IMG/VR virus record: IMGVR_UViG_3300024996_000147 | Location: 1 to 35,211 of that record | Length of the DNA stretch: 35,211 bases | Source of the DNA: a virus | Lineage: Duplodnaviria; Caudoviricetes | Strand: one strand, 5' to 3' | Part shown: one piece after another, positions 1 to 30,173 of the stretch | Layout of the letters: every line of letters begins with the position of its first letter | How positions within the stretch are numbered: the stretch's first letter is position 1 | The notes under the pieces: generated by a model | What the model saw: only the letters and a program-made list of their open reading frames with translations | Told to the model about the DNA's origin: nothing | The model's database searches: none | Program-made: the position numbers and the translations under genes

Positions 1-1272
1 ATGTCCTGTACTTTGACCGTGGCGGACGACATCGATCCCCTGAACACGGCGCTCGACAGGCATTTCGGCCATGCCGCGTTTCGCCCCGGTCAGGAGGAGA
101 TCGTTCGGGCCGTCATGGCCGGACGCGACGTGCTGGCGTTGCTGCCGACCGGCGGCGGCAAGTCTCTATGCTATCAGCTTCCGGCGTTGCTCGGCGAGGG
201 CGCCACGATCGTGGTCTCGCCGCTGATCGCCTTGATGAGCGACCAGTTGCGGCAGTTGCAGGCGCGCGGCATTGCGGCCGTCAGCATCAATTCCGCCAAC
301 AGCCAGGCCGAGAATGCCGGCGCGGCGGCGATGCTCACCCAGGGCCGCGCCAAATTGCTCTATGTCGCCCCGGAGCGGCTGGCGAGCCCGATGCTGCATG
401 CCCTGTTGGCGGCCGTCCGGCCATCACTTCTCGTCGTGGACGAAGCGCATTGCATTTCGGAATGGGGCCATGATTTCCGGCCCGATTATCTCGGCATCGG
501 CGCTTTCGCCGGAAGTTTGCCGGGCGTGCGGTTGCTGGCGCTGACAGCCACCGCCGACACGTTCACGCGCGCCGATATCCTGCGCCACCTGTTCGGAGGG
601 CGCGAGCCGCTGGTCATCGCGCGCGGTTACAGTCGGCCGAACCTGCGCCTGTCGCTGCAGCGCCGCAGCTCCCCGGAGCGCCAGATCGCGCGCTTCGTCG
701 CGGCACGGCGCGGACAATGCGGCATCGTCTATGCCGGCTCGCGCCGGCGGGTCGAGCATTATGCGGCGCTGCTGAAGCGCGAGGGCCATCATGCGCTGCC
801 CTACCATGCCGGTCTGGCGCATATGGAGCGACGGGCCAATCAGGAGGTGTTCCGGGCGCGCGCCGATGTGGTGATGGTGGCCACGATCGCCTTCGGGCTC
901 GGCATCGACAAGCCCGACGTGCGCTTCGTGCTGCATGCCGATCTGCCGCAATCGATCGAGGCCTTTGCGCAGGAGATCGGCCGGGCCGGGCGCGACGGCC
1001 TGCCGGCCGAGGCGCATGCGCTGTTCGATCCTGCCCGCATGGAAACCCGGCGTGCGGAACTGCTGCGGGACGCGCCCGAGGCGACGCTCCCGGCCCGCCT
1101 TGCCCGGCTCGATGCGTTGGCCGGGTTGTGCCGCGCGCGCAACTGTCGCCAGCAGCGGCTGCTCGCCTATTTCGGCGAGGCGGCTGCGCCATGCGGCAAA
1201 TGCGACCGTTGCACGGCTGTAGCGCGACAAATCAAATGGCATCGAGCGACAGATCAAATGGCATCAAACTGA
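1..1272 (+). CDS. recQ: RecQ-family ATP-dependent DNA helicase (host), 3' end replaced by prophage end sequence
   Basis: Motif 0 (FGHAAFRPGQEEIV), Walker A LPTGGGKSLCYQLPA, DEAHCISEWGHDFRPDY, ATIAFGLGIDKPDVRFV, QEIGRAGRDG, Zn-binding CRQ..YFGE..CGKCDRC. The last ~18 codons and the stop lie inside the phage end repeats. Confidence 0.92.
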   Translation: MSCTLTVADDIDPLNTALDRHFGHAAFRPGQEEIVRAVMAGRDVLALLPTGGGKSLCYQLPALLGEGATIVVSPLIALMSDQLRQLQARGIAAVSINSANSQAENAGAAAMLTQGRAKLLYVAPERLASPMLHALLAAVRPSLLVVDEAHCISEWGHDFRPDYLGIGAFAGSLPGVRLLALTATADTFTRADILRHLFGGREPLVIARGYSRPNLRLSLQRRSSPERQIARFVAARRGQCGIVYAGSRRRVEHYAALLKREGHHALPYHAGLAHMERRANQEVFRARADVVMVATIAFGLGIDKPDVRFVLHADLPQSIEAFAQEIGRAGRDGLPAEAHALFDPARMETRRAELLRDAPEATLPARLARLDALAGLCRARNCRQQRLLAYFGEAAAPCGKCDRCTAVARQIKWHRATDQMASN

Positions 1273-1281
1273 TTTTCGCGA
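1218..1281. repeat. Prophage right end: TG terminus and putative transposase-binding sites
   Basis: TGT at 1218. GCGACAAATCAAATGGCATC (1224-1243) and GCGACAGATCAAATGGCATC (1246-1265) match at 19/20 with a 22-bp period. Weaker inverted copy GCGAAAATCA at about 1270-1280. Confidence 0.85.
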
Positions 1282-2120
1282 CGGGGTGGTTTTAAGGCCC
1301 CGGCGCCCCCCTTGCCGTCCGTGACGATCAACTCCTGGGCCGCCGTGCTGCGTCGGCCGCCGCCGACCGAATAGGTGAGGTCTACGGGCTGCAGCGCGAA
1401 GCGCGAGAAGGCCTGGCGGATTGCCGGTGTGTCGTTGATCGACAGCACGAAGCGGCCCTGCAGGCCAGCCAGTAGCTCAGCCAGCGCCAGGAAGTCCGCC
1501 GGGGTGAAGACGCCCTTGCCGTAATCATCCTCTGAGCCGGCATAGGGCGGGTCGAGGTAGAACAGCGTGCCCGGCCGGTCGTAGCGCCGAATGAAGTCGG
1601 CATAGTGCAGCTGCTCGATGACGATGCCGGCGAGGCGCTCGTGCAGATCGTCGATCACCGGCACCAGGCGCAGCGGATTGAAGGCCGCGCCCTCACCCGG
1701 CGAGACGCCGAAATTGCGCCCGCTGACCTTGCCGCCGAAGGCCGTGCGCTGGAGGTAGAGGAAGCGCGCCGCCCGCTCCAGATCGGTCAGCGTGGCCGGG
1801 TCGCACGCCTTGAGGCGCTCGAACTCGCGCCGGCCGGTGAGCTGCCAGCGCAGCATGTCGACGAAGGCATTGTGGTGCCGTTGCAGGATGCGGAAGAACG
1901 TCGCCACGTCGCCAGAGATGTCGTTGATCACCTCCAGCTTGGGCGCAAGCCGCCGGCGCAGGAACACGCCGCCCATGCCGACGAACGGCTCGGCATAGCA
2001 GCCGTGCGGGATGCTCTCGATCACGCTGATGATACGGCGGGCGAGCCGGCGCTTGCCGCCGATATAGCCGGCGGCCGGCCGCACCGGAGCGACATCTCGA
2101 AACCCCTCTTGAATGTCCAT
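1254..2120 (-). CDS. D12-class N6-adenine DNA methyltransferase (Dam-like), at the Mu mom position
   Basis: YIGGKRRLA, EPFVGMGGVF (SAM binding), INDI, FYLDPPY catalytic motif. Start is 2120, alternatively 2147. Confidence 0.92.
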   Translation of the reverse strand: MDIQEGFRDVAPVRPAAGYIGGKRRLARRIISVIESIPHGCYAEPFVGMGGVFLRRRLAPKLEVINDISGDVATFFRILQRHHNAFVDMLRWQLTGRREFERLKACDPATLTDLERAARFLYLQRTAFGGKVSGRNFGVSPGEGAAFNPLRLVPVIDDLHERLAGIVIEQLHYADFIRRYDRPGTLFYLDPPYAGSEDDYGKGVFTPADFLALAELLAGLQGRFVLSINDTPAIRQAFSRFALQPVDLTYSVGGGRRSTAAQELIVTDGKGGAGALKPPRRENQFDAI

Positions 2121-2166
2121 TGAAACACCGTTGAGAATCACGGCCATCTGTCCGCGCTGCGCAGCG

Positions 2167-2255
2167 GCGGCAGGGTGGCGGTTATCTCTGGATTGACGCT
2201 CCGTGGGGATAGCTTCCCGGCGTCCCACGGCCGGGCATTGCCCGGACCCTGCCAC
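2167..2255 (-). ncRNA. Candidate cis-regulatory three-way-junction RNA in methylase leader
   Basis: GTGGCAGGGT (2255-2246) pairs with ACCCTGCCGC (2176-2167), enclosing the hairpin CCGGGC-AAT-GCCCGG and the stem CCGTGGG/CCCACGG. Confidence 0.45.
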
Positions 2256-16310: not shown

Positions 16311-16909
16311 GGCGCATCCTCGGGCGGCAGGTTGCCGACCAGGCGCGGCTCGGGATCGCCGCCATTGATCGAGAGGCCGCTCGGCACGGCCGAGGGCTCC
16401 AGCCCGGTCTCCAGCCCGCGCTGGATAACCGGCCGCGCCGGCGCGACATTGAGCAGGCGCCACTTGTACTCTTGCAGGCCGATTGCCAGTCCCTTGCCGC
16501 TGGTCTGATCGGAGACGGCGACGAGCTGGTTGCCGATCTCGGCCGCCATCACCTGGGTGAGCCCGACGTAAGGGTCGGCCATCATCACGCCGAGCACGGC
16601 GGAGAGGCGCTCGAGGCAACCGAGGTCGGCCGAGGAGAATTTGGGGTCGGGCTGACCGATGCGGCCGGCGATGACGATGATCGCCACCGAGACATCCATG
16701 TCGATGCCGGCATCGGCACGCACGATCGGCTTGGCCGCCAGAAAGCACACGCGCGCGGACGGCGCCCTGGTGCTGTCTTTGACCAGGTCGCCGAGGTCGT
16801 AGCGGTCGAGTTCGACGCGCGCCTCAGTAAATAGCGGCGCATCGGCCTCATCCTTGGCGGCGCGCAGCGCGCCGGCGATGGCGTTGAGCAGCGTGACGAT
16901 CCGGCTCAC
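16307..16909 (-). CDS. Putative tail terminator / neck protein
   Basis: 200 aa; position between tail completion and spike genes. Function is inferred from synteny only. Confidence 0.6.
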   Translation of the reverse strand: MSRIVTLLNAIAGALRAAKDEADAPLFTEARVELDRYDLGDLVKDSTRAPSARVCFLAAKPIVRADAGIDMDVSVAIIVIAGRIGQPDPKFSSADLGCLERLSAVLGVMMADPYVGLTQVMAAEIGNQLVAVSDQTSGKGLAIGLQEYKWRLLNVAPARPVIQRGLETGLEPSAVPSGLSINGGDPEPRLVGNLPPEDAP

Positions 16910-17388
16910 CCGAACAGCCTCCGCAGATAGGCGCCGGTCGCCTGCAGCAGCTCGGCGCGGTTGTCGGCCGAGATGCCGATATATGGCCTCGCCGGCATGG
17001 TGACGCTTTGGGTGCGGATCAGGCGGCCGCCGAGACGAAACACCAGTGCAGGCGCCGTCTTGGGCTTGATCACGCCGCCGAATTGATGGATCGCCGCATA
17101 GACCAGGCCGGAACCGACGACGGCGGAGGTGCCCTGCACGAGATAGTCGATCGAGCGCGCCAGCGCACCGGAGCGGTGCAGGACCGGTGTGCGGCCCTCA
17201 ATATTGGGCGCCCAGGCGGCGCCATCCGGGGCTGGGCCGCCGGCGGTCAGCCGGTCAACCGTCTGCTCGCGGATCAGCCGGGCGAGTGCCTCGAGCAGGG
17301 TTGCGCCCTGGTCGCTCGACAGGCGCGACAGGCCGGTCTCGAATTGCGCAAAGCCGGTGAGCTCTGCCTTGATCGCGATGCCGGCCAT
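16906..17388 (-). CDS. Virion morphogenesis / tail completion protein (Mu gpG / P2 S-like)
   Basis: PDGAAWAP, L..SG.L..SI, VGS...YAAIHQFGG, MPARPYIG. Confidence 0.92.
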   Translation of the reverse strand: MAGIAIKAELTGFAQFETGLSRLSSDQGATLLEALARLIREQTVDRLTAGGPAPDGAAWAPNIEGRTPVLHRSGALARSIDYLVQGTSAVVGSGLVYAAIHQFGGVIKPKTAPALVFRLGGRLIRTQSVTMPARPYIGISADNRAELLQATGAYLRRLFG

Positions 17389-17819
17389 TACCACTCACCC
17401 TTGAGGCGGCGCGGCTGGGCTTCGAAATACGCCCCGCCCTCGGCGGCGACGCTGCCGCCGGTGCCATCAAGCCCGCCGGCCGGAAACGCCTCGAGCTCGG
17501 CGATATCGGCCTTGCCGGCCGCCACGTCGCGCAGGAACTCCTGACGCATCTTGGCGCGCTTTTCGATCTCCTCTGACATGCGGTCGGCGGCCGGTGCCAG
17601 ATGCCAGCACGCCAGATCGATGGCGCATTGCCGCACGATCTGTGGCACGAGCGGCAGCGGCACGCGGTAGCGCTTGCGCAGGTAAGGATCGATCATCGCC
17701 TGGGCGTCGTCGATCGCACGCGACACGGCGAGGTCGATATCGACATCGCTCGGCACCAGCGTCGCCAGGAAATTGGCGCCGCGCAGCTGCTCGATGTCCT
17801 GACGTGTGGCGTAGACCAC
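17388..17819 (-). CDS. Mu gp36 / DUF1320 head-tail adaptor
   Basis: YAT..DI, AI.DA..MID.YL..RY.VPL..VP, L.DVA.GK. GTG start at 17819 with an AGGAG SD. Confidence 0.9.
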   Translation of the reverse strand: MVYATRQDIEQLRGANFLATLVPSDVDIDLAVSRAIDDAQAMIDPYLRKRYRVPLPLVPQIVRQCAIDLACWHLAPAADRMSEEIEKRAKMRQEFLRDVAAGKADIAELEAFPAGGLDGTGGSVAAEGGAYFEAQPRRLKGEW

Positions 17820-17839
17820 GGCGGCGCTCCTGGATTGAT

Positions 17840-17984
17840 GCGGCCCCGTCGCCACGAGGCCGCGTTCTGGCGGGCGGCGGATCTGTGATCCCTTCGCCGG
17901 CCGGGGTAGCGACCCGTTATGCCGGCGATCCCATCGGGTGCAGGGGGCCTCGCGAGCCGTACCTGGCCGCCCTTTCGGGGCATT
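17840..17984 (-). ncRNA. Structured tRNA 3' trailer (multibranch fold plus terminal hairpin)
   Basis: Stems GGGCGGC/GCCGCCC, CAGG/CCTG with GCGA loop, TCGCCGGC/GCCGGCGA, GGATC/GATCC and GCGGCCTCGT/ACGGGGCCGC. Confidence 0.4.
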
Positions 17985-18059
17985 TGGTTGCGGGAGGAGG
18001 ATTTGAACCTCCGACCTCCGGATTATGAGCCCGGCGCGCTACCCCTGCGCTACCCCGCT
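17985..18059 (-). tRNA. tRNA-Met(CAT), initiator (fMet)-like, 75 nt with encoded CCA
   Basis: AGCGGGG TA GCGC AGGGGTA GCGC G CCGGG CTCATAA TCCGG AGGTC GGAGG TTCAAAT CCTCC TCCCGCA A CCA forms a complete cloverleaf with a 1:72 mismatch and fMet-type TTCAAAT loop. Confidence 0.93.
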
Positions 18060-18065
18060 AAACTG

Positions 18066-18323
18066 CTACTCGGCGGCGCCGTCCTCGGTCTGCTCCGGGG
18101 CCTTGGCCGGGCCGACATGGAGCAACGGGTCGTCGATGATCGCCTGTGCCTCCTTCTCCGACAGATCGGAGAGCGCCAGGATGACAGGGGTCGGCCCAAA
18201 ATCGCGGCCGGCACGGCGGCGCCCCTCCTTCGGGCCAGTGATCGAGATGTAACGGCCGCCACGCTGTTTGCGCTCCGGCCGCTCAGAGGAGGCGTCGGGT
18301 AGGGTTTGGGGGTCTTTGGCCAT
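18066..18323 (-). CDS. Mu gp35 / HI1506-like head-region protein
   Basis: I.GPKEGRRRAGRDFG..P.....L.......I..DPLL.V motif; GAGGAG SD. Confidence 0.8.
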   Translation of the reverse strand: MAKDPQTLPDASSERPERKQRGGRYISITGPKEGRRRAGRDFGPTPVILALSDLSEKEAQAIIDDPLLHVGPAKAPEQTEDGAAE

Positions 18324-18421
18324 GATCAGGTCTCCTCAGAGGGGCTTACCGGCAGGCCCCGCAAGGCCGGCTGGAAAGCCCCTGGCCGCGAGGGCCAGGG
18401 GAAGGTTACGCGGGGAGGAAC

Positions 18422-19315
18422 TCAGCCCAGCCAGGGCACCACGACGAGCTCGACGCGGTTGAAGTCGAGGTTGCTTTCGCCGCCGGCGAGATTGGCCTTT
18501 TTCAGGATGACCTCAGCGGCCGCCCGGTTGGTCGGCCCGGTGACCAGAGCGTTGGGCGTGATGGCCAGCGGCACGCCGTAATCGCCCTTGAGCTTGGTCA
18601 TGGCGGTGTAAGCGGCGCCGAAATTCGCCACCGTCAGGTCAGCCTTAGAGCCGAAAGCCGTCTGCCAGAAGCCAAAGCCGGCGGTGTTGCGGCTGTCGGC
18701 GCCGTAGCGGAATTCCTTCTTCGTGAAGACGCTCTCGTCATCCGGATTGTCCATCGCCACGAAGCGCGGTGCCTGACGGTTTTGGAAGATGATCGGCTTG
18801 AGCGCCTTGGTCAGGTCCATCAGATACCAGGGCGAGCCGGCGCCGGTCTGGACGTTGGAGACTGACGTAAGACTGCCGGCCGCATCGAGCACCGGATGGT
18901 CGCTGTCGAAATAGTACTGACCGTCGAAACAGTTGGTCGAGAAGCCCTGCGGCAGCGTGGCGAACACCAGTTCGTCGGGCTGACGCGCGGCCGCATCGCC
19001 AAGCATGCGGGCGATCGGGGAATAGATGCCGTAGCGATCATCGGAAATCGCATTTCCTTTGACCGAAATCGTATCTTCCCAGTCCTCGTTGACCAGACGA
19101 TAGGACGAGGTCTTGACGTTCTTGACCTGCCGCTCGCCGATCCACTTGCGCATGCCGGGGATCTGGTCGAGCCAGGGATAGAGCTCCTCGCTCGTCGTCG
19201 AGGGCACCTCAGTGGCAAAACGCGCCCACATCGGCTGTACCGCCGCGATGCCCGCCTGGAAGTTGGTGCGCAGCCCGGTGGTCAGGATACGCAGATTGGC
19301 CGAATTGATGATCAT
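18422..19315 (-). CDS. Mu-like major head subunit gpT
   Basis: MIIN, VPST...E.Y.WL...P.MR.WIGER, CFDGQYYFDSDHPV, KPIIFQ.R, GFGFWQ.A.GS, PWL. Confidence 0.96.
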   Translation of the reverse strand: MIINSANLRILTTGLRTNFQAGIAAVQPMWARFATEVPSTTSEELYPWLDQIPGMRKWIGERQVKNVKTSSYRLVNEDWEDTISVKGNAISDDRYGIYSPIARMLGDAAARQPDELVFATLPQGFSTNCFDGQYYFDSDHPVLDAAGSLTSVSNVQTGAGSPWYLMDLTKALKPIIFQNRQAPRFVAMDNPDDESVFTKKEFRYGADSRNTAGFGFWQTAFGSKADLTVANFGAAYTAMTKLKGDYGVPLAITPNALVTGPTNRAAAEVILKKANLAGGESNLDFNRVELVVVPWLG

Positions 19316-19370
19316 GGTCGGTCCTCGGGCGCGGCGGTGCCGCGATGGTTAGGGGTTGCGGGCGGCGGCC

Positions 19371-19775
19371 TTAGCGGATCTCGACCCAGACGCCGGCGGC
19401 CTCGACCTCGAGCACCTTGCCGGCCTTGGACAGCGTGTTGGCGCCGCTCGTCTTGGCGACAGTCTCGTCGTCGGCGATGTAGCAATCACTGAGCACGTCC
19501 GCCTGGGTCAGCGGATCGGTCGCCGAATTCTTGAACCGGAACACGCCGCGCTGCGCCGTGACGCTCAGCGCACCATCGGCACCGCCGGTATTGTCCGCAC
19601 TCTCCTCGGCGCGGCCGGCCGCCTTGAGCGTGGTCGCGACCGCGCCAGGCGTCGCATAGCCGGTGGCGCTGACGCAGACGATGCCGCCCTGGTGGATGAC
19701 CTTGGCGGCGGCGACGGGGAGCACCAGGAGGTCGGGTTCGCGCGTCCAGGTGTCGCGGGGTTTGCTGAGTGCCAT
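19371..19775 (-). CDS. Head decoration / capsid cement-like protein
   Basis: MAL..PR.T, DNTGGADG..SV...RGVF.F.NS, CYI.DD.TVAKT; lies between protease and capsid. Confidence 0.75.
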   Translation of the reverse strand: MALSKPRDTWTREPDLLVLPVAAAKVIHQGGIVCVSATGYATPGAVATTLKAAGRAEESADNTGGADGALSVTAQRGVFRFKNSATDPLTQADVLSDCYIADDETVAKTSGANTLSKAGKVLEVEAAGVWVEIR

Positions 19776-19808
19776 GTGAGCGGGCTCCGGTAGTGGATCG
19801 GGTTGAGG

Positions 19809-20282
19809 TCAGGCGGCGCGTTCGGCGGCGCGCGCCGCGAGGAAATCGGCCTCGCTCACGCCGAGGTTGCGGACGATCGCCCGCTCGGCATCGGTGAGAG
19901 ATCCGGCCGTCGCGGCCGGGTCACCGGGGATTGCCGGGTCTTGGCCAGGCTTGAGCAGCACCGGCATGGCGTCGATCGCCGCCTTGGTGGCGTCGTAAGC
20001 GGCGCTGGCGAGCGCCAGGTACTGATCCTTGGCGGCCGGCGCGAGCTTGCCGGCCGCGATCGCGCCGTCGACGAGGGTGGCGCAACGCGCGGTCTGCGCG
20101 GCCTGGTTGGCCGCATCGATCGTCGCCTGGGCGGCCGACAAGGCCGCGACCGTCGCGGCGTGCTGTGCCGCCGGCACGAATTTCTCGGGGTCCGGCATCG
20201 ACAGCGCCGTGATCGCGCTGAGGGTCTCCGGCAGCGATGCAGCTTCCTTCAGGCCGAGCGCGGCCAGAATTTCCTTGAGCAT
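19809..20282 (-). CDS. Nested in-frame scaffold protein (Mu gpZ-like)
   Basis: Internal AAGGAAG-CCCCC-ATG start (MLKEILAALGL) right after the protease domain. Confidence 0.7.
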   Translation of the reverse strand: MLKEILAALGLKEAASLPETLSAITALSMPDPEKFVPAAQHAATVAALSAAQATIDAANQAAQTARCATLVDGAIAAGKLAPAAKDQYLALASAAYDATKAAIDAMPVLLKPGQDPAIPGDPAATAGSLTDAERAIVRNLGVSEADFLAARAAERAA

Positions 20283-20801
20283 GGGGGCTTCCTTGGTTTG
20301 CGAGGCTGATGCGATGGCGGGCATACCGAGCGCCGGCGACGAGACGAGCGCAGCACCTTTGAGGAGGCGCGCCGTGACGCCATCCTCGTCGCGCCAGAAT
20401 GTCGGAGAGATGTAGCGATAAGCCTTGGCCGCGAGGGCTGTGACTGCATCGGGCAGCCATTCGACCTTGCCGAAAAGCCCCTCCGCACGAGCCTCGACGG
20501 CTACGATCCAGGCACGAGCGGGCTTCGAACCCAGCAACATCGCGTATTCGGTCTCGTGGTCGAAGTCGATCGGCAGCTTGAGAGTGTCATCGGCAAAGGC
20601 GGCGGCCAGGCGCTCAGGGTCGAACACAAACCGTCGGCGATCGCGCGCCTCGACGGCGCCACGCGGCGTCAGTTGCACCCAGACCGGCGGTGTCGCCACT
20701 CCATCGGCTCCGGCCGCCGCAAGGGCAACCTCAAACGCAACACCGCCGGCGGTGAGGCCAGGGGGCAGTGCGTCGTCTCGGGTGGTGGATCGGTGCGCCA
20801 T
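19809..20801 (-). CDS. Mu-like protease I with C-terminal scaffold
   Basis: WVQL.P.G....RD.R, LPIDFDH, A.AWI, VEW, YRYISPTF, AALV..PAL. ATG 20801 has no SD. Confidence 0.92.
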   Translation of the reverse strand: MAHRSTTRDDALPPGLTAGGVAFEVALAAAGADGVATPPVWVQLTPRGAVEARDRRRFVFDPERLAAAFADDTLKLPIDFDHETEYAMLLGSKPARAWIVAVEARAEGLFGKVEWLPDAVTALAAKAYRYISPTFWRDEDGVTARLLKGAALVSSPALGMPAIASASQTKEAPMLKEILAALGLKEAASLPETLSAITALSMPDPEKFVPAAQHAATVAALSAAQATIDAANQAAQTARCATLVDGAIAAGKLAPAAKDQYLALASAAYDATKAAIDAMPVLLKPGQDPAIPGDPAATAGSLTDAERAIVRNLGVSEADFLAARAAERAA

Positions 20802-20830
20802 GTCCGGCACATTGGCCGTAGGCGCGGTCG

Positions 20831-20856
20831 CAAAAGAGGGTGACGCGCGTCACCCC
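20831..20856 (-). promoter_or_regulatory. Putative late promoter element 2 (protease/capsid operon)
   Basis: Palindrome at 20838-20855; -10-like CAATGT at 20814-20809. Confidence 0.75.
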
Positions 20857-20971
20857 TCACGCAATTTCCGGGAGGCTTTCGCTGGGCGCCAGCATGCGCT
20901 ATATTCGCCGAGCGGTCGAGCCATGCTGTGCCGGTCATGAGCCGGGAGGGACTAGCGCCCCTCCGACCGCT

Positions 20972-22177
20972 TCAATCCCCTTTTATTCTCGATTTTGCGG
21001 CCTTGCCGACATTCTCGGCCGCGTCGGGCCGGAGGGAGGTCAGCAGGATCTCGTCCTCGGCCGTGCGCTTGATCACAGCTTTCCAGGGCCGCTCGCCAAA
21101 ATAGCGCCAGAGCGCGAGATCGCCGTCATCGATGACAGCGTCGGGCGCGTCGATGATCTGCTGCACCAGGTCGTAATCCGCAATGGCGAGTGGCTGGTGC
21201 CGGCGGGCGCGCGACTGCTTTTCGGCGGTGGCGATGGTCATCGCCACGGTGCGGCTCGTCGTGCCGAGGGCGCGGGCGGCATCATCGGAGAGCGCGGCAA
21301 CCGGCCAGCGCAGATCACGGATGGCGTGATCGCCCGGCATGGTGGGCTTATAGCCGGCGCCATTGTCGACGACATACTCAAACACCGGGTCCTTGCGCAT
21401 CTGGGCGATCGTCTCGCGCCGCACGTCTGTCGTCATCGCGTCCAGCTTGGCGGTCATGCGCTTGCCGGCCATCTGCTCGCGGGACATGCCGGGGTTGCTG
21501 TCCCAGCCCGGATCAATGCCGGCCGGCACCATGCGCGTCTCGCCAGTGGCACGGTTGGTCCAGGAGCGCGGATCGAGCGGCGGTGCCTCGGTCGGCACGC
21601 CGTCGCGCGGCTCGGCACGCGAGCGCGCCCGACATTTGCAGCGCCAGCCATTGGGCGGGTAATGCGTCGACCACCAGTCGTCATCCACGGGGAGCGTCGT
21701 GCCGACCCATGACAGGTGCAGCGGGCGCTTACGCTCCGAGGTCGAGGTCATGTACTCGAGATAGGGGAGCACGTCCTTGACGCGCTGGATGCGGCCCCAG
21801 TCGCCGGCCGCCTCGGCCGAGCGGATATTGGCATCGTAGATCAGGTCGAGCCGGCGCAGCGAACCGAGCTGTGCCTTGACGATCTCGCCGGTGCGCGGAT
21901 CGGTAATCTGTTTGACGCCCCACCAGCCCTTGGCCTTGAGGATCGGCGTCAGCTCGTCGCGAAACTGCGCAAACGGCACGCGATCGACAACCGCCTTTTG
22001 CACGGCCGATCGGATATCGTCGAGCACATCAAAACCGGCGGTGCGCGCCACGGTAAAGCCAAGCGCGTGCTCCCTGGGAGCCATCTCGGCCCAGTGAAAT
22101 GTCGGTCGGCTCGGCCGCCGCTTGAAATAGTCGACGACTTCTTTCGGCGCGGTCTGAAACAGCTTCTCGTCGGCCAT
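20972..22177 (-). CDS. MuF (gp30) minor head protein with C-terminal extension
   Basis: H..GFTVA, L..KGWWG, RL..IYDAN, R..H..W.G..LP.DD.WW..HYPPNGWRCKC, GIDPGW.SNPG, then ~130 extra residues. Confidence 0.92.
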   Translation of the reverse strand: MADEKLFQTAPKEVVDYFKRRPSRPTFHWAEMAPREHALGFTVARTAGFDVLDDIRSAVQKAVVDRVPFAQFRDELTPILKAKGWWGVKQITDPRTGEIVKAQLGSLRRLDLIYDANIRSAEAAGDWGRIQRVKDVLPYLEYMTSTSERKRPLHLSWVGTTLPVDDDWWSTHYPPNGWRCKCRARSRAEPRDGVPTEAPPLDPRSWTNRATGETRMVPAGIDPGWDSNPGMSREQMAGKRMTAKLDAMTTDVRRETIAQMRKDPVFEYVVDNGAGYKPTMPGDHAIRDLRWPVAALSDDAARALGTTSRTVAMTIATAEKQSRARRHQPLAIADYDLVQQIIDAPDAVIDDGDLALWRYFGERPWKAVIKRTAEDEILLTSLRPDAAENVGKAAKSRIKGD

Positions 22178-22301
22178 CGGTCACCGCCCGCCGCAGAGGC
22201 CCGCAGGCGGGCGCGAGCGGCTGCCGGCGCCCATCTGTCGAATAAAGGGACAGCCCCCGCCCAACCGTTTCAAAACCGCTTTAACGGCGACGTTGCCGGC
22301 G

Positions 22302-23900
22302 TCACTCATCTCCAGCATCGCCACGGCCCCGTGCGATCAGGGTTTCTATGCCCAGACGGCGCGCCAGGCGCTTGACCGGGAGCCCCGGTGCCAGGCGGTC
22401 GAGGCTCGCCTGGAATGCCTCGTAGCTGTCGGCCTCGTCGGCCGCAGCACGGATCGCGGCGACGATCGGCGCCATGGTCGGCTCCCAGCCCTCGAGCGCC
22501 TCGGCGATCTGCAGGTCAGCCTCGCTGGCCTCATCACCCGGCGCATCGGCCGCAAGCCGGGCCGGGCCACAGGACGGGCACTGGCGCGGATCAAGCCGAT
22601 AGGGCGAGATGGCGCTGGCCTCGCCGATCGGCGACGGCGGCGTGGCCTTGATATCGGACTTGCCGGGCTTGAGCAGCTTGGCGCCGTTGTCCGGCTCCTT
22701 GAGACCGAGGACATCATAAATCTGGCTCTGCTCGACCTCGAGCCCGCGATCGACCAACTGGCCGACGGCGTCCGACCAGACCTGCAAATCCTTGCGCTCC
22801 GGGATCGGCATATGGACACGCGGATAGAGCTTTTGCGGCCCGAAGTTGAGATCAACCACCGGGCGGATCATCTGCCCCATCAAGGTCAGCGCGAGGTCTC
22901 GCGCGTCGGAACGCTTGATGTCGATGCGGACCTTGTCGAGCGTCTCCTCGCCGGCGCGCGACGAGGCGATGCCGTCGCCGGGCTTGCCGATGATCAGCTT
23001 GGCGAGCTGCTCGTCGAGATAGCGCGCCGAGGTCTCGAACGGCTTGTCGGAAAAACCCTTGGCCTCGACGAGCTCGAGCTCCATGCCCATCGGCACGATC
23101 GCCGCCGCATCGCGGCCGAGGTTGCGCACGGCGGCGAGCAGCACGGCACGATCGTCACTGGACGAGCCCGGCCCGTATTTGCCGAGCCGCATCGGCATGC
23201 CGTAAATCTCGAGAAACTGTGCCCAGTCGCGCAAGTTGAACGACTTGAGCATGAAACTCCACACCGCGACGCGGGCGAGCCCATTGCGCGCCGGCAGGCC
23301 CATCTTGAGCAGCGGCACATGCACCAGGTACTTGAGCGGCTCGAGCGGCCGGCCATCCGGCTCGCCCTGGACGCGTAGGCGGAACTCGCGCCTGGTCTCA
23401 CGGTCGAACTGGAATAGCCTCGGGTCGCGCCAGATGAACTGGCGCGGCAGCCAGGCCGAGCCGGTCTCCCACACCATCTCAACGGCGGAGTAGCCCTTGG
23501 CGAGCCCGTCGACGAGCATGTCGATGACCTGCCCGAAGGCCGGCGTCTCGATGATCTCGTTGCGCAAAAAATCGGCGATCTCGATGTCGCGCGCGCTCTC
23601 GCTCGCCGGATCGACCTGCAGGTTGAGACTGGTGACGCCGTTTTTGCGCGTCTCCAGCACGTAGCGGTAATGCGGTTCTCGCTCCTCGATCTCCTCGGCG
23701 AGCGTGAGAAAATCATACATCTCGCCGATCGCCGCATCGCGCAGCGTGGCGGCGAGCCGGCCGGGCGTCAGGCCCGGGGCGACGAAGTCGTCAAACTGGT
23801 GCCGGACGCCGGTGACGCTCGGCACGGCGCGCTCCTGGCTGAGCACGGCGCGCTGGATCGGCTGGCCGTCCGGACCGAGGATCTTGTAGGGGGTCGCCAT
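22302..23900 (-). CDS. Portal protein (DUF935, Mu gp29-like)
   Basis: GLTP.RLA..LR.A, KGYSAVEMVW, DWAQFLEIYGMPMRLGKY. Confidence 0.94.
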   Translation of the reverse strand: MATPYKILGPDGQPIQRAVLSQERAVPSVTGVRHQFDDFVAPGLTPGRLAATLRDAAIGEMYDFLTLAEEIEEREPHYRYVLETRKNGVTSLNLQVDPASESARDIEIADFLRNEIIETPAFGQVIDMLVDGLAKGYSAVEMVWETGSAWLPRQFIWRDPRLFQFDRETRREFRLRVQGEPDGRPLEPLKYLVHVPLLKMGLPARNGLARVAVWSFMLKSFNLRDWAQFLEIYGMPMRLGKYGPGSSSDDRAVLLAAVRNLGRDAAAIVPMGMELELVEAKGFSDKPFETSARYLDEQLAKLIIGKPGDGIASSRAGEETLDKVRIDIKRSDARDLALTLMGQMIRPVVDLNFGPQKLYPRVHMPIPERKDLQVWSDAVGQLVDRGLEVEQSQIYDVLGLKEPDNGAKLLKPGKSDIKATPPSPIGEASAISPYRLDPRQCPSCGPARLAADAPGDEASEADLQIAEALEGWEPTMAPIVAAIRAAADEADSYEAFQASLDRLAPGLPVKRLARRLGIETLIARGRGDAGDE

Positions 23901-28379: not shown

Positions 28380-28790
28380 TCAAAACAGCGATCCCTGCCC
28401 TTTGTGGTGGCGGTGCGTCTTCTGCCGAAAAACCGAGCGCCTGGTGATGCCGGCGCGCTGCGCGGCCTGGTTGGTGGTGGCGCCGTCCGCCAGCGCCTGC
28501 GTCACGAGACGATGGCGGCGCCGGCGCTCGGCCAGATAGCTGCCGGTCGGGCCGAGCGGAATATCAAGCCCGAGCCGGCCGCCCGAGCCCGCCACGAAAT
28601 GCGCCGAGATCTGCTCAGCCTTGTCGCGGCCGATCGCCTTGACCAGCCAATGACCGTTGCTCAGGCGTCCCGGAATGGTCACACGCTGCCCGCCCTTGGC
28701 CTCGGCGATCGCCAAGGCGGCGTCGATGCCGACGACCTCGGCGATCTCGGCAAGCAAGGGAGGCAGGTCTGGCCAGCCGGCGGAGCTCAT
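28380..28790 (-). CDS. Mor/C-like late transcription activator
   Basis: LP.LLAEIAEVVG..AALAIAEA.GGQRV.IP, C-terminal HTH, Q.SLF end; last gene before lysis. Confidence 0.8.
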   Translation of the reverse strand: MSSAGWPDLPPLLAEIAEVVGIDAALAIAEAKGGQRVTIPGRLSNGHWLVKAIGRDKAEQISAHFVAGSGGRLGLDIPLGPTGSYLAERRRRHRLVTQALADGATTNQAAQRAGITRRSVFRQKTHRHHKGQGSLF

Positions 28791-28791
28791 T

Positions 28792-29031
28792 TTACCTGCC
28801 CCGGCGGCGATCGAGCGCCGGATCGTCGTACAGCACCGTGGTGACGGTGCCGGCCTTGACGATGTAGGAGACGCCATCCGCCATGACGGAATAGTTTGCC
28901 TGGCCAAGCTGCTCGGCGGATTTTGCGGCCTTTTGAAGCGACATTGAAATGTGCTTGCGGATGGCCTCGACATCGAGGCCGCCGGCGCGCTCCAAAAACC
29001 GGACTAGGGCGTGATCGGAGACATGCAGCAT
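28792..29031 (-). CDS. Small hypothetical protein (VSDHALVRFLER motif)
   Basis: 79 aa, TGATG-coupled to gemA. Confidence 0.75.
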   Translation of the reverse strand: MLHVSDHALVRFLERAGGLDVEAIRKHISMSLQKAAKSAEQLGQANYSVMADGVSYIVKAGTVTTVLYDDPALDRRRGR

Positions 29032-29663: not shown

Positions 29664-29924
29664 TCAGATCACCATGCCGAGCGCGGAGAGGTAGAGATCG
29701 AGGATCTCGCCATGCTCCTTGCGCTCGTCGATATCCTGCTTTCGCAGCGCAACCAGGTGGCGCAGCACCTTGGTGTCGAATCCGTTGGCCTTCGCCTCAG
29801 CGTAGACGTCGCGGACGTCCTCAGCGAGGGACTTCTTTTCCTCTTCCAGGCGCTCGATCCGCTCGATGATGGCCTTGAGTTGGCCGACGGTGGCGTCATT
29901 CATTTCGGCAGCAATGTCATCCAT
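29664..29924 (-). CDS. GapR / DUF2312 nucleoid-associated protein homologue
   Basis: [60 protein letters not shown]. Confidence 0.93.
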
Positions 29925-30173
29925 GGTCTTTCCCTCTGCTCGCAAGAAATGCCCGGCGAGCCTCGGGCGCCTGCGCCATGAAGGCGCGGATTTCGTCCTC
30001 GTGATCCTGAAACCAGTTGATGGTGCGCAGCACCGCCTGCAGGCGCCGCAGGTCGTATTCCTCGGCCGGCTTGCCGCGCCCGCTCTTGACGGTGCCGCCG
30101 GCGGCGATCTGGTGCAGGCGGTGTGCAGCGCCTCGGCTTGCTGGTTGAGCGAGATGCGGGGGCGATCGGTCAT
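29917..30173 (-). pseudogene. Small hypothetical gene with apparent frameshift
   Basis: ATG 30173 frame reads [16 protein letters not shown]. The protein-like continuation QIAAGGTVK...[24 protein letters not shown] is in the -1 frame; the switch is near 30110-30125. Confidence 0.6.

Follow-up and report, generated by a model that had tools for sequence, protein, structure and literature searches.

Why should a transposable phage keep a single tRNA gene among the genes for its head? A phage of this kind needs no attachment site and an initiator tRNA cannot correct codon bias; therefore the two usual explanations for a lone phage tRNA are removed here. The gene in question belongs to virus record IMGVR_UViG_3300024996_000147, the whole 35,211-nucleotide stretch of which is referred to below as the window. 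The original prediction took it for an initiator-like tRNA with altered determinants, expressed late, and possibly nuclease-resistant or a decoy.

An initiator-type tRNA within the head operon

A Mu-like prophage of the contractile-tail type, with every gene on the minus strand, makes up the window. Along that strand the order is portal, gpF-type minor head protein, protease, virion protein, major head protein, an 85-aa ORF, head-tail adaptor, neck and tail genes and, last, a Dam methylase (Table 1). The sole tRNA detected by ARAGORN is a tRNA-Met(CAT), which scores 62.1 bits (E 2.6e-11) against Rfam model RF00005 and whose minimum-energy fold is a cloverleaf; its folding energy alone lies within the range of chance (z -1.34; 18 of 200 shuffles were equally good). 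It starts 6 nt past the TAG of the 85-aa ORF, on the strand of the head genes that lie on both sides of it. The Dam gene at the late end is 16.7 kb away and the contig end 17.2 kb. An intact cloverleaf placed in the late head operon, co-oriented with the capsid genes and far from the prophage end, is what had been described. The label gp35-like for the adjoining ORF holds for its position, which matches that of Mu gp35; the ORF itself matches only PHROGs of unknown function.

Table 1. Features of the window that bear on the tRNA gene.
Feature	Position	Strand	Basis
Initiator-type tRNA(CAU), 75 nt, encoded CCA; anticodon 18027-18025, A38 at 18023, U39 at 18022	17985..18059	minus	ARAGORN, RF00005, fold
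85-aa ORF, function unknown, Mu gp35 position	18066..18323	minus	phrog_27280 (unknown function)
Mu-type major head protein, ATG start	18422..19315	minus	phrog_371, E 4.6e-113
9-nt match to tRNA 3' end, in the upstream slot that relatives fill with a tRNA	19354..19362	minus	sequence match
Virion structural protein, gp33 position, upstream of capsid gene	19371..19775	minus	phrog_1731
Head maturation protease/scaffold	19809..20810	minus	phrog_328
Head-tail adaptor (gp36 type), likely GTG start at 17819; first gene past the tRNA	17388..17819	minus	phrog_195
Neck/tail-completion protein	16906..17394	minus	phrog_26
Mor/C-type late transcriptional activator	28380..28973	minus	phrog_836
Dam-type methyltransferase, marks prophage late end	1254..2255	minus	PHROG match

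From its role in phage Mu, we take the Mor/C-type activator to be the likely driver of the tRNA-bearing operon. No sigma-70-type promoter was found in 16700-22400, Mu late promoters being outside the scope of the scan. The GC-rich, hairpin-forming spacers past the tRNA (17820-17984, minus strand) and past the capsid gene (18324-18421, minus strand) are no more stable than their shuffles (z -0.6 and -1.6). The 9-nt match in the upstream slot is possibly the remnant of a tRNA; the sign is a weak one, the 9-mer being present three times on the same strand.

A Mu early region with a transposase stands at the end of host contig C58 (host genome G000) and likely belongs to the window prophage, though the contig ends overlap imperfectly: some 50 nt, with several mismatches, are shared by the end of C58 and the 35211 side of the window (the end of contig C5). 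A second Mu-transposase domain is present in the same genome (C48:13975), and together with the imperfect overlap may reflect duplication of a segment or another, related element. The minus strand at 29664-30173 encodes a C-terminal PRK13694/GapR-like domain (111 bits, above the cut-off for PRK13694 and below that for GapR). Among named records, the capsid gene has its nearest relatives in Bosea, Chelatococcus and Camelimonas.

Read base by base, the tRNA has A1:A72, G2:C71, C3:G70, C11:G24, G29:C41, G30:C40, G31:U39, C32, A37, A38, A73 and an encoded CCA; every pair and determinant that the original prediction listed is correct. Contigs of runs X1/X2, a possible source of the window DNA, and a contig of runs X3/X4 (244 nt over 17911-18154) show 0 differences from the window, and as far as these contigs show U39 is no assembly slip. 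The CAU anticodon, cloverleaf and CCA end of a bacterial-type initiator are all present, as are the formylation determinants (1:72 mismatch, G2:C71 and C3:G70; PMC11231383, PMC5389676) and G30:C40, the essential middle pair of initiators. The full set of three G:C pairs at 29:41-31:39 is absent (G31:U39), and the host initiator also falls short of it (A29:U41). Both forms are listed natural variants and mark a variant initiator, not exclusion from the class: PMC5389676 describes A29:U41 as general in alphaproteobacterial initiators, names G30 as the essential base and lists GC/GC/gu as a natural variant. G31:U39 is, in the same source, natural in some cell initiators and therefore need not be an escape change. 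A11:U24 is absent as well, with C11:G24 in its place; 11:24 is a minor determinant, free to vary among phage copies.

By ARAGORN the host genome has three further CAU tRNAs, one initiator, one elongator and one of Ile2 type, and the host has just one tRNA-fMet gene. Identity of the window tRNA to these three is 62/77, 58/77 and 46/77, respectively. It shares the acceptor stem G2-G5:C68-C71 and the 1:72 mismatch with the host initiator, and departs from it at 27:43, 29:41 and 31:39; the two genes are thus not identical. The E. coli pattern used as the earlier reference differs from the real host initiator, which has A29:U41; among 85 matches to the pattern in 101 genomes of the host order, 82 have exactly this host sequence. 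An elongator tRNA-Met is ruled out by the unpaired A1:A72, set against G1:C72 in the host elongator, and by the 58/77 identity; a tRNA-Ile2 (lysidine CAU) by G4:C69 and G5:C68 in place of the C4:G69 and C5:G68 of the host's third CAU tRNA, pairs that we take to be TilS determinants, and by the 46/77 identity. An att-site tRNA is ruled out, as had been argued, by the mid-prophage position, the 62/77 identity to host fMet and the Mu transposase at the end of C58. On its sequence, the gene is an initiator-type tRNA, in agreement with the original prediction.

Elsewhere, A1:A72 is common in viral CAU tRNAs (10 of 99 canonical copies), and the host elongator-type tRNA-Met (G000:C39:60848-60924) combines an A31:C39 mismatch with U32.

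Recurrence in Mu-like capsid loci

Surveying this locus in Mu-like prophages, as had been proposed, reveals recurrence. The survey set comprised 222 loci around Mu-type capsid genes, fed in part by two alignment scans (the best 80 of about 580 matches each) and reduced to 190 clusters at 95% protein identity. A tRNA(CAU) is present in 15 of the 190 clusters, about one in twelve (13/158 among clusters with full flanks), and no tRNA gene is present in about 92% of Mu-like head loci. All 15 copies are on the capsid strand and occupy one of two slots: five lie upstream, in the gap that separates the virion protein gene from the capsid gene; ten lie downstream, 260-862 nt past the capsid gene and, in the eight that are placeable, before the adaptor gene. 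Most are 6-30 nt from gene ends. The capsid proteins of the tRNA-bearing loci are only 40-76% alike. One of the loci included (L014) was found only at a relaxed ARAGORN threshold and scores 70 bits with covariance model R2.

No convincing isotype other than CAU was found in the survey; non-CAU ARAGORN calls in L026 and L162 and the second call in L158 were dropped as false or degenerate, R2 giving no match to L026 or L162. Nineteen of 19 further Mu-like head loci from a class-wide sample have no tRNA within 1.5 kb, and a plasmid search returned ordinary tRNA-level matches only.

On a tree of capsid proteins the trait (intact, broken or remnant) falls on 21 of 188 tips with 15 changes, compared to a shuffled mean of 20.2 and minimum of 16: it is mildly clustered and has been gained or lost often. 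Broken copies or a remnant occur in six clusters. The T arm is lost in L024/L035, the D arm in L294 and the anticodon loop in L133; L001 and L032 contain a 35-nt hairpin insert, and of L003 just the ends are left. Patchy presence and decay would fit a conditional accessory gene.

The insert in L001 (2866-2976) and L032 (2367-2476), both of the upstream slot, lies in the anticodon arm and forms a 9-bp hairpin that differs between L001 and L032 by compensatory changes; genome G981 has 17 similar palindromes, and the insert may be a host REP-like repeat placed into the tRNA. Tandem tRNA-like pieces at L158:2970-3145, between the protease and virion-protein genes, have intact D and T arms, no CAU and poor acceptor stems; this phage additionally has an intact tRNA(CAU) downstream.

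To the 15 capsid-ascertained copies we added five from the C38 pattern described below (L179, L180, L201, L210 and L242) and aligned all 20. Across the alignment 94.5% of stem cells are paired, compared to 46-52% in slid controls, and 75 cells show compensatory (two-sided) changes, a number reached by none of 500 shuffles. Position 1:72 is unpaired in 17 of 20 copies and U:A in the remaining three, never G:C or C:G; G2:C71, G4:C69, G5:C68, G30:C40 and G31 are invariant (20/20), C3:G70 is present in 19/20, and CAU is kept in all 15 intact copies. Pairs 27:43, 29:41 and 11:24 vary freely, the last being C:G in eight copies, G:C in six, A:U in five and U:A in one; C11:G24, once read as a meaningful alteration, loses that standing. 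Within this alignment U39 is unique to the window tRNA. Covarying stems and retained initiator determinants are the pattern that would be expected of a working initiator, not of a decoy.

Changes beside the 38/39 bond

In tRNA-fMet the bond cleaved by enteric VapC is the one that joins A38 to C39 (PMC4105405). The window has U39 where its host has C39, in addition to the differences at 27:43 and 29:41, which places a difference beside a known nuclease cut site. Seven of the 15 capsid-ascertained copies are changed at 38/39, six to C38 and the window's copy to U39 (the five copies taken from the C38 pattern are left out of this count); eight retain A38-C39. In 121 cell genomes of the phylum, by comparison, 4 of 141 non-window matches are changed and 137 have A38-C39 (Fisher p 4e-6, kin not being independent). 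Changes at 38/39 number 0/84 in 101 genomes of the host order, and non-A38 forms appear in 2 of 301 order genomes, one within a prophage (L289). In that prophage, which is not of the Mu kind, a C38 initiator-like tRNA (L289:1474-1550) is flanked by a Q-type antiterminator and an HNH gene and likely opens the late operon.

IMG/VR holds some 590 C38, 260 U39 and 5600 canonical stretches, all rough tool estimates, the canonical figure including host att copies. Well-formed viral copies are mostly initiator-like (79 of 84 with U39, 94 of 99 with C38). U32 accompanies C38 in 75 of 94 viral initiator-like copies (L169-L288), compared to 3 of 99 viral copies with A38-C39; C38 with U32 amounts to a compensated swap of 32 and 38, which cells almost entirely lack. 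C38 is not specific to Mu: Mu-like head loci account for just 7/120 C38 and 0/120 U39 fetched loci (40 of each set having 300-base flanks only). U39, private within the Mu set yet part of a broad viral habit, is not Mu-specific either.

Is VapC the opponent? The model for fMet-specific VapC, NF047863, has matches in 86 of 200 genomes of the host family, eight of them above the curated cut-off, and BoVapC1 of Bosea cuts tRNA-fMet in E. coli (PMC8522696). In the window's host (96% complete) NF047863 matches nothing at E<=1e-15, and the two PIN proteins encoded there fall far short of VapC cut-offs. One belongs to a vapBC-like pair (L291:1310-1869, in G000:C22), its VapC having no solved relative by sequence; the other is a solitary-looking gene (L292:555-1130). 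A strong fMet-type VapC is present in none of five hosts of intact copies (G000, G134, which is 63% complete, G135, G146 and G981; best E 4e-15, partial), and the host of a broken copy (G983) has a strong match (4e-32). At family level, strong VapC occurs in 0/4 tRNA-bearing hosts and in 8/13 hosts of tRNA-less Mu loci (p 0.08). Host co-occurrence thus runs against a VapC link, weakly, phages switching hosts and the numbers being small. For the proposed nuclease resistance, the enrichment of changes beside the 38/39 bond gives partial support; VapC as the selective agent finds none.

Possible roles for the head-operon initiator

We consider it an even call whether a late-made phage initiator tRNA offsets loss of host tRNA-fMet, keeping initiation running when defences cut or deplete the host's single copy. 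The tRNA, for which no promoter of its own was found, would be co-transcribed with the capsid genes from a late promoter, excised by RNase P and trimmed at its 3' end by host enzymes. It would be charged by MetRS via CAU and A73, formylated via the 1:72 mismatch, G2:C71 and C3:G70, and admitted to the P site via G30:C40, and would stand in for host initiator that a defence nuclease or toxin has removed, at the time when capsid synthesis peaks. The weakest steps are the two forms of protection: sheer abundance, from what would be the strongest phage transcript, and, in about half of the copies, the window's included, a changed base next to the 38/39 bond, on one side only, which would make a candidate anticodon nuclease less effective. 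Eight of 15 copies keep A38-C39 and therefore only abundance could help them. A T5-like phage beats the tRNA-cutting retron Eco7 by over-producing tRNA-Tyr (PMC11555353).

A wider proposition, which we hold as doubtful, is that temperate phages, Mu-like included, repeatedly add a lone initiator tRNA to a late operon and recode the bases flanking the 38/39 bond (C38 with U32, or U39) against a widespread, possibly capsid-timed, putative initiator-tRNA nuclease used as anti-phage defence.

Perhaps one should look no further than supply: extra initiator capacity for the capsid burst where a host has few tRNA-fMet genes, unconnected to defence and with the 38/39 changes being drift or ribosome-binding tuning. 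We think this unlikely, while recognizing how much it accommodates, namely a host with one fMet gene, two slots that flank the most heavily translated gene, canonical 38/39 bases in 8/15 copies, the lack of host co-occurrence with fMet-type VapC, and a C38 with U32 (75/94) that resembles loop tuning. However, the changes cluster next to an established cut site and cell copies hardly show them, and frequent decay in close relatives would be odd for a constant benefit. Nor is there a link to non-AUG starts, an idea that we rejected in its own right (capsid gene ATG in 15/15; gp36 GTG in 3/11 with the tRNA vs 10/51). High demand for methionine was also rejected: head proteins are just 0.8-3.3% Met, and such demand would concern the elongator anyway.

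That the cloverleaf serves as a mark for RNase P/RNase Z, splitting the late transcript around the capsid gene and tuning capsid vs neck output, with tRNA function secondary, seems to us improbable. Both slots bracket the capsid gene close to gene ends, any operon-internal tRNA has to be cut out, L001/L032 retain acceptor, D and T arms despite the anticodon-arm insert, and L133 and L158 contain tRNA-like pieces devoid of an anticodon. For a cut mark an anticodon is dispensable; in all 15 intact copies, however, CAU, G30:C40 and a weak 1:72 persist while other pairs vary, and the broken L024/L035 and L294 lose the T or D arm that a processing signal should keep.

We likewise give little credence to captured tRNA genes drifting and decaying in intergenic gaps, with U39 an early step of decay. 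Absence from most loci, six broken copies or remnants and the uniqueness of U39 among the aligned copies are in keeping with such drift; the compensatory changes and strict initiator determinants across capsid proteins 40-76% alike, the restriction to one isotype, one orientation and two slots, and the recurrence of U39 in many other viral initiators speak against it. Finally, the decoy option of the original prediction, a plentiful mimic that titrates a tRNA-fMet nuclease or acetyltransferase and takes no part in translation, is very improbable: high late expression is plausible and the anticodon arm is like the host target, but a decoy should retain the cut-site sequence, and it is the cut site that changes while formylation and P-site determinants stay.

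Several known systems come close to this arrangement. The window tRNA resembles bacterial tRNA-fMet, including the natural au/GC/GC and GC/GC/gu variants listed in PMC5389676, in its 1:72 mismatch, G2:C71, C3:G70, G30:C40, CAU and A73, a G:U third pair being listed as natural; it differs in being phage-borne and within an mRNA operon, in having A1 not C1, C11:G24 and 75 nt, and in G29:C41 vs host A29:U41. Phage tRNAs act against defence in the case of tRNA-Tyr of T5/SP15 (retron Eco7) and of tRNA-Lys (PrrC) (PMC11555353), and mycobacteriophage C1 tRNAs are predicted to be nuclease-insensitive (PMC10264068). Like the T5/SP15 and C1 tRNAs, ours is a phage copy of a host tRNA that differs near a known cleavage site, with replacement or abundance as the proposed action. 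Those are elongators grouped in tRNA arrays that have their own promoter, in large lytic phages, whereas the window, from a small transposable phage, has a single initiator in its head operon, and the opponent nuclease is putative.

Closer in setting are the Sinorhizobium phiLM21-like prophages (PMC12429752), 15 of 25 of which carry one tRNA, 14 of those CAU, with lone tRNA-Met/fMet genes tabulated. Here too a single CAU tRNA lies in a temperate alphaproteobacterial prophage, apart from the att site and patchily distributed; these prophages are integrase-type, not Mu-like, and the accessible part of that source contains no analysis of determinants or position. The tRNA-fMet-specific VapC toxins (enteric VapC/MvpT, Leptospira VapC and Bosea BoVapC1; PMC4105405, PMC8522696, PMC7180214) cut initiator tRNA, the enteric ones at A38/C39, the bond beside the window's changed base. 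They are candidate opponents only, absent from the window's host at E<=1e-15, and the accessible parts of these three papers include no anti-phage role against Mu-like phages.

Shigella phages are described as generally avoiding tRNA-fMet (van den Berg et al., PMC10264068), no tRNA-fMet is given for Sf14 (PMC12482277), and the Mu-like SfMu and YPCBV-1 are reported without tRNA (PMC4406740, PMC9769972). In PMC6536676 and PMC12486242 tRNAs figure as att sites or as one tRNA-Val; further background is in PMC2528185, PMC7180214 and PMC11231383. A literature search with most subscription papers outside its scope returned nothing on initiator tRNAs within the head operons of Mu-like phages, nor on repeated changes at 38/39 among initiators of viruses. 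Phage tRNA counter-defence (by elongators, established or proposed) and lone prophage tRNA-fMet genes are known; the head-operon slot is the apparently unreported part.

The natural A38-C39, C38 and U39 alleles in near-identical phages provide a panel for finding which host enzyme, if any, has been escaped, and if a widespread initiator-tRNA nuclease does exist, hundreds of viral variants would map its recognition code. The locus itself offers a one-gene, deletable test case for asking whether phages defend translation initiation itself.
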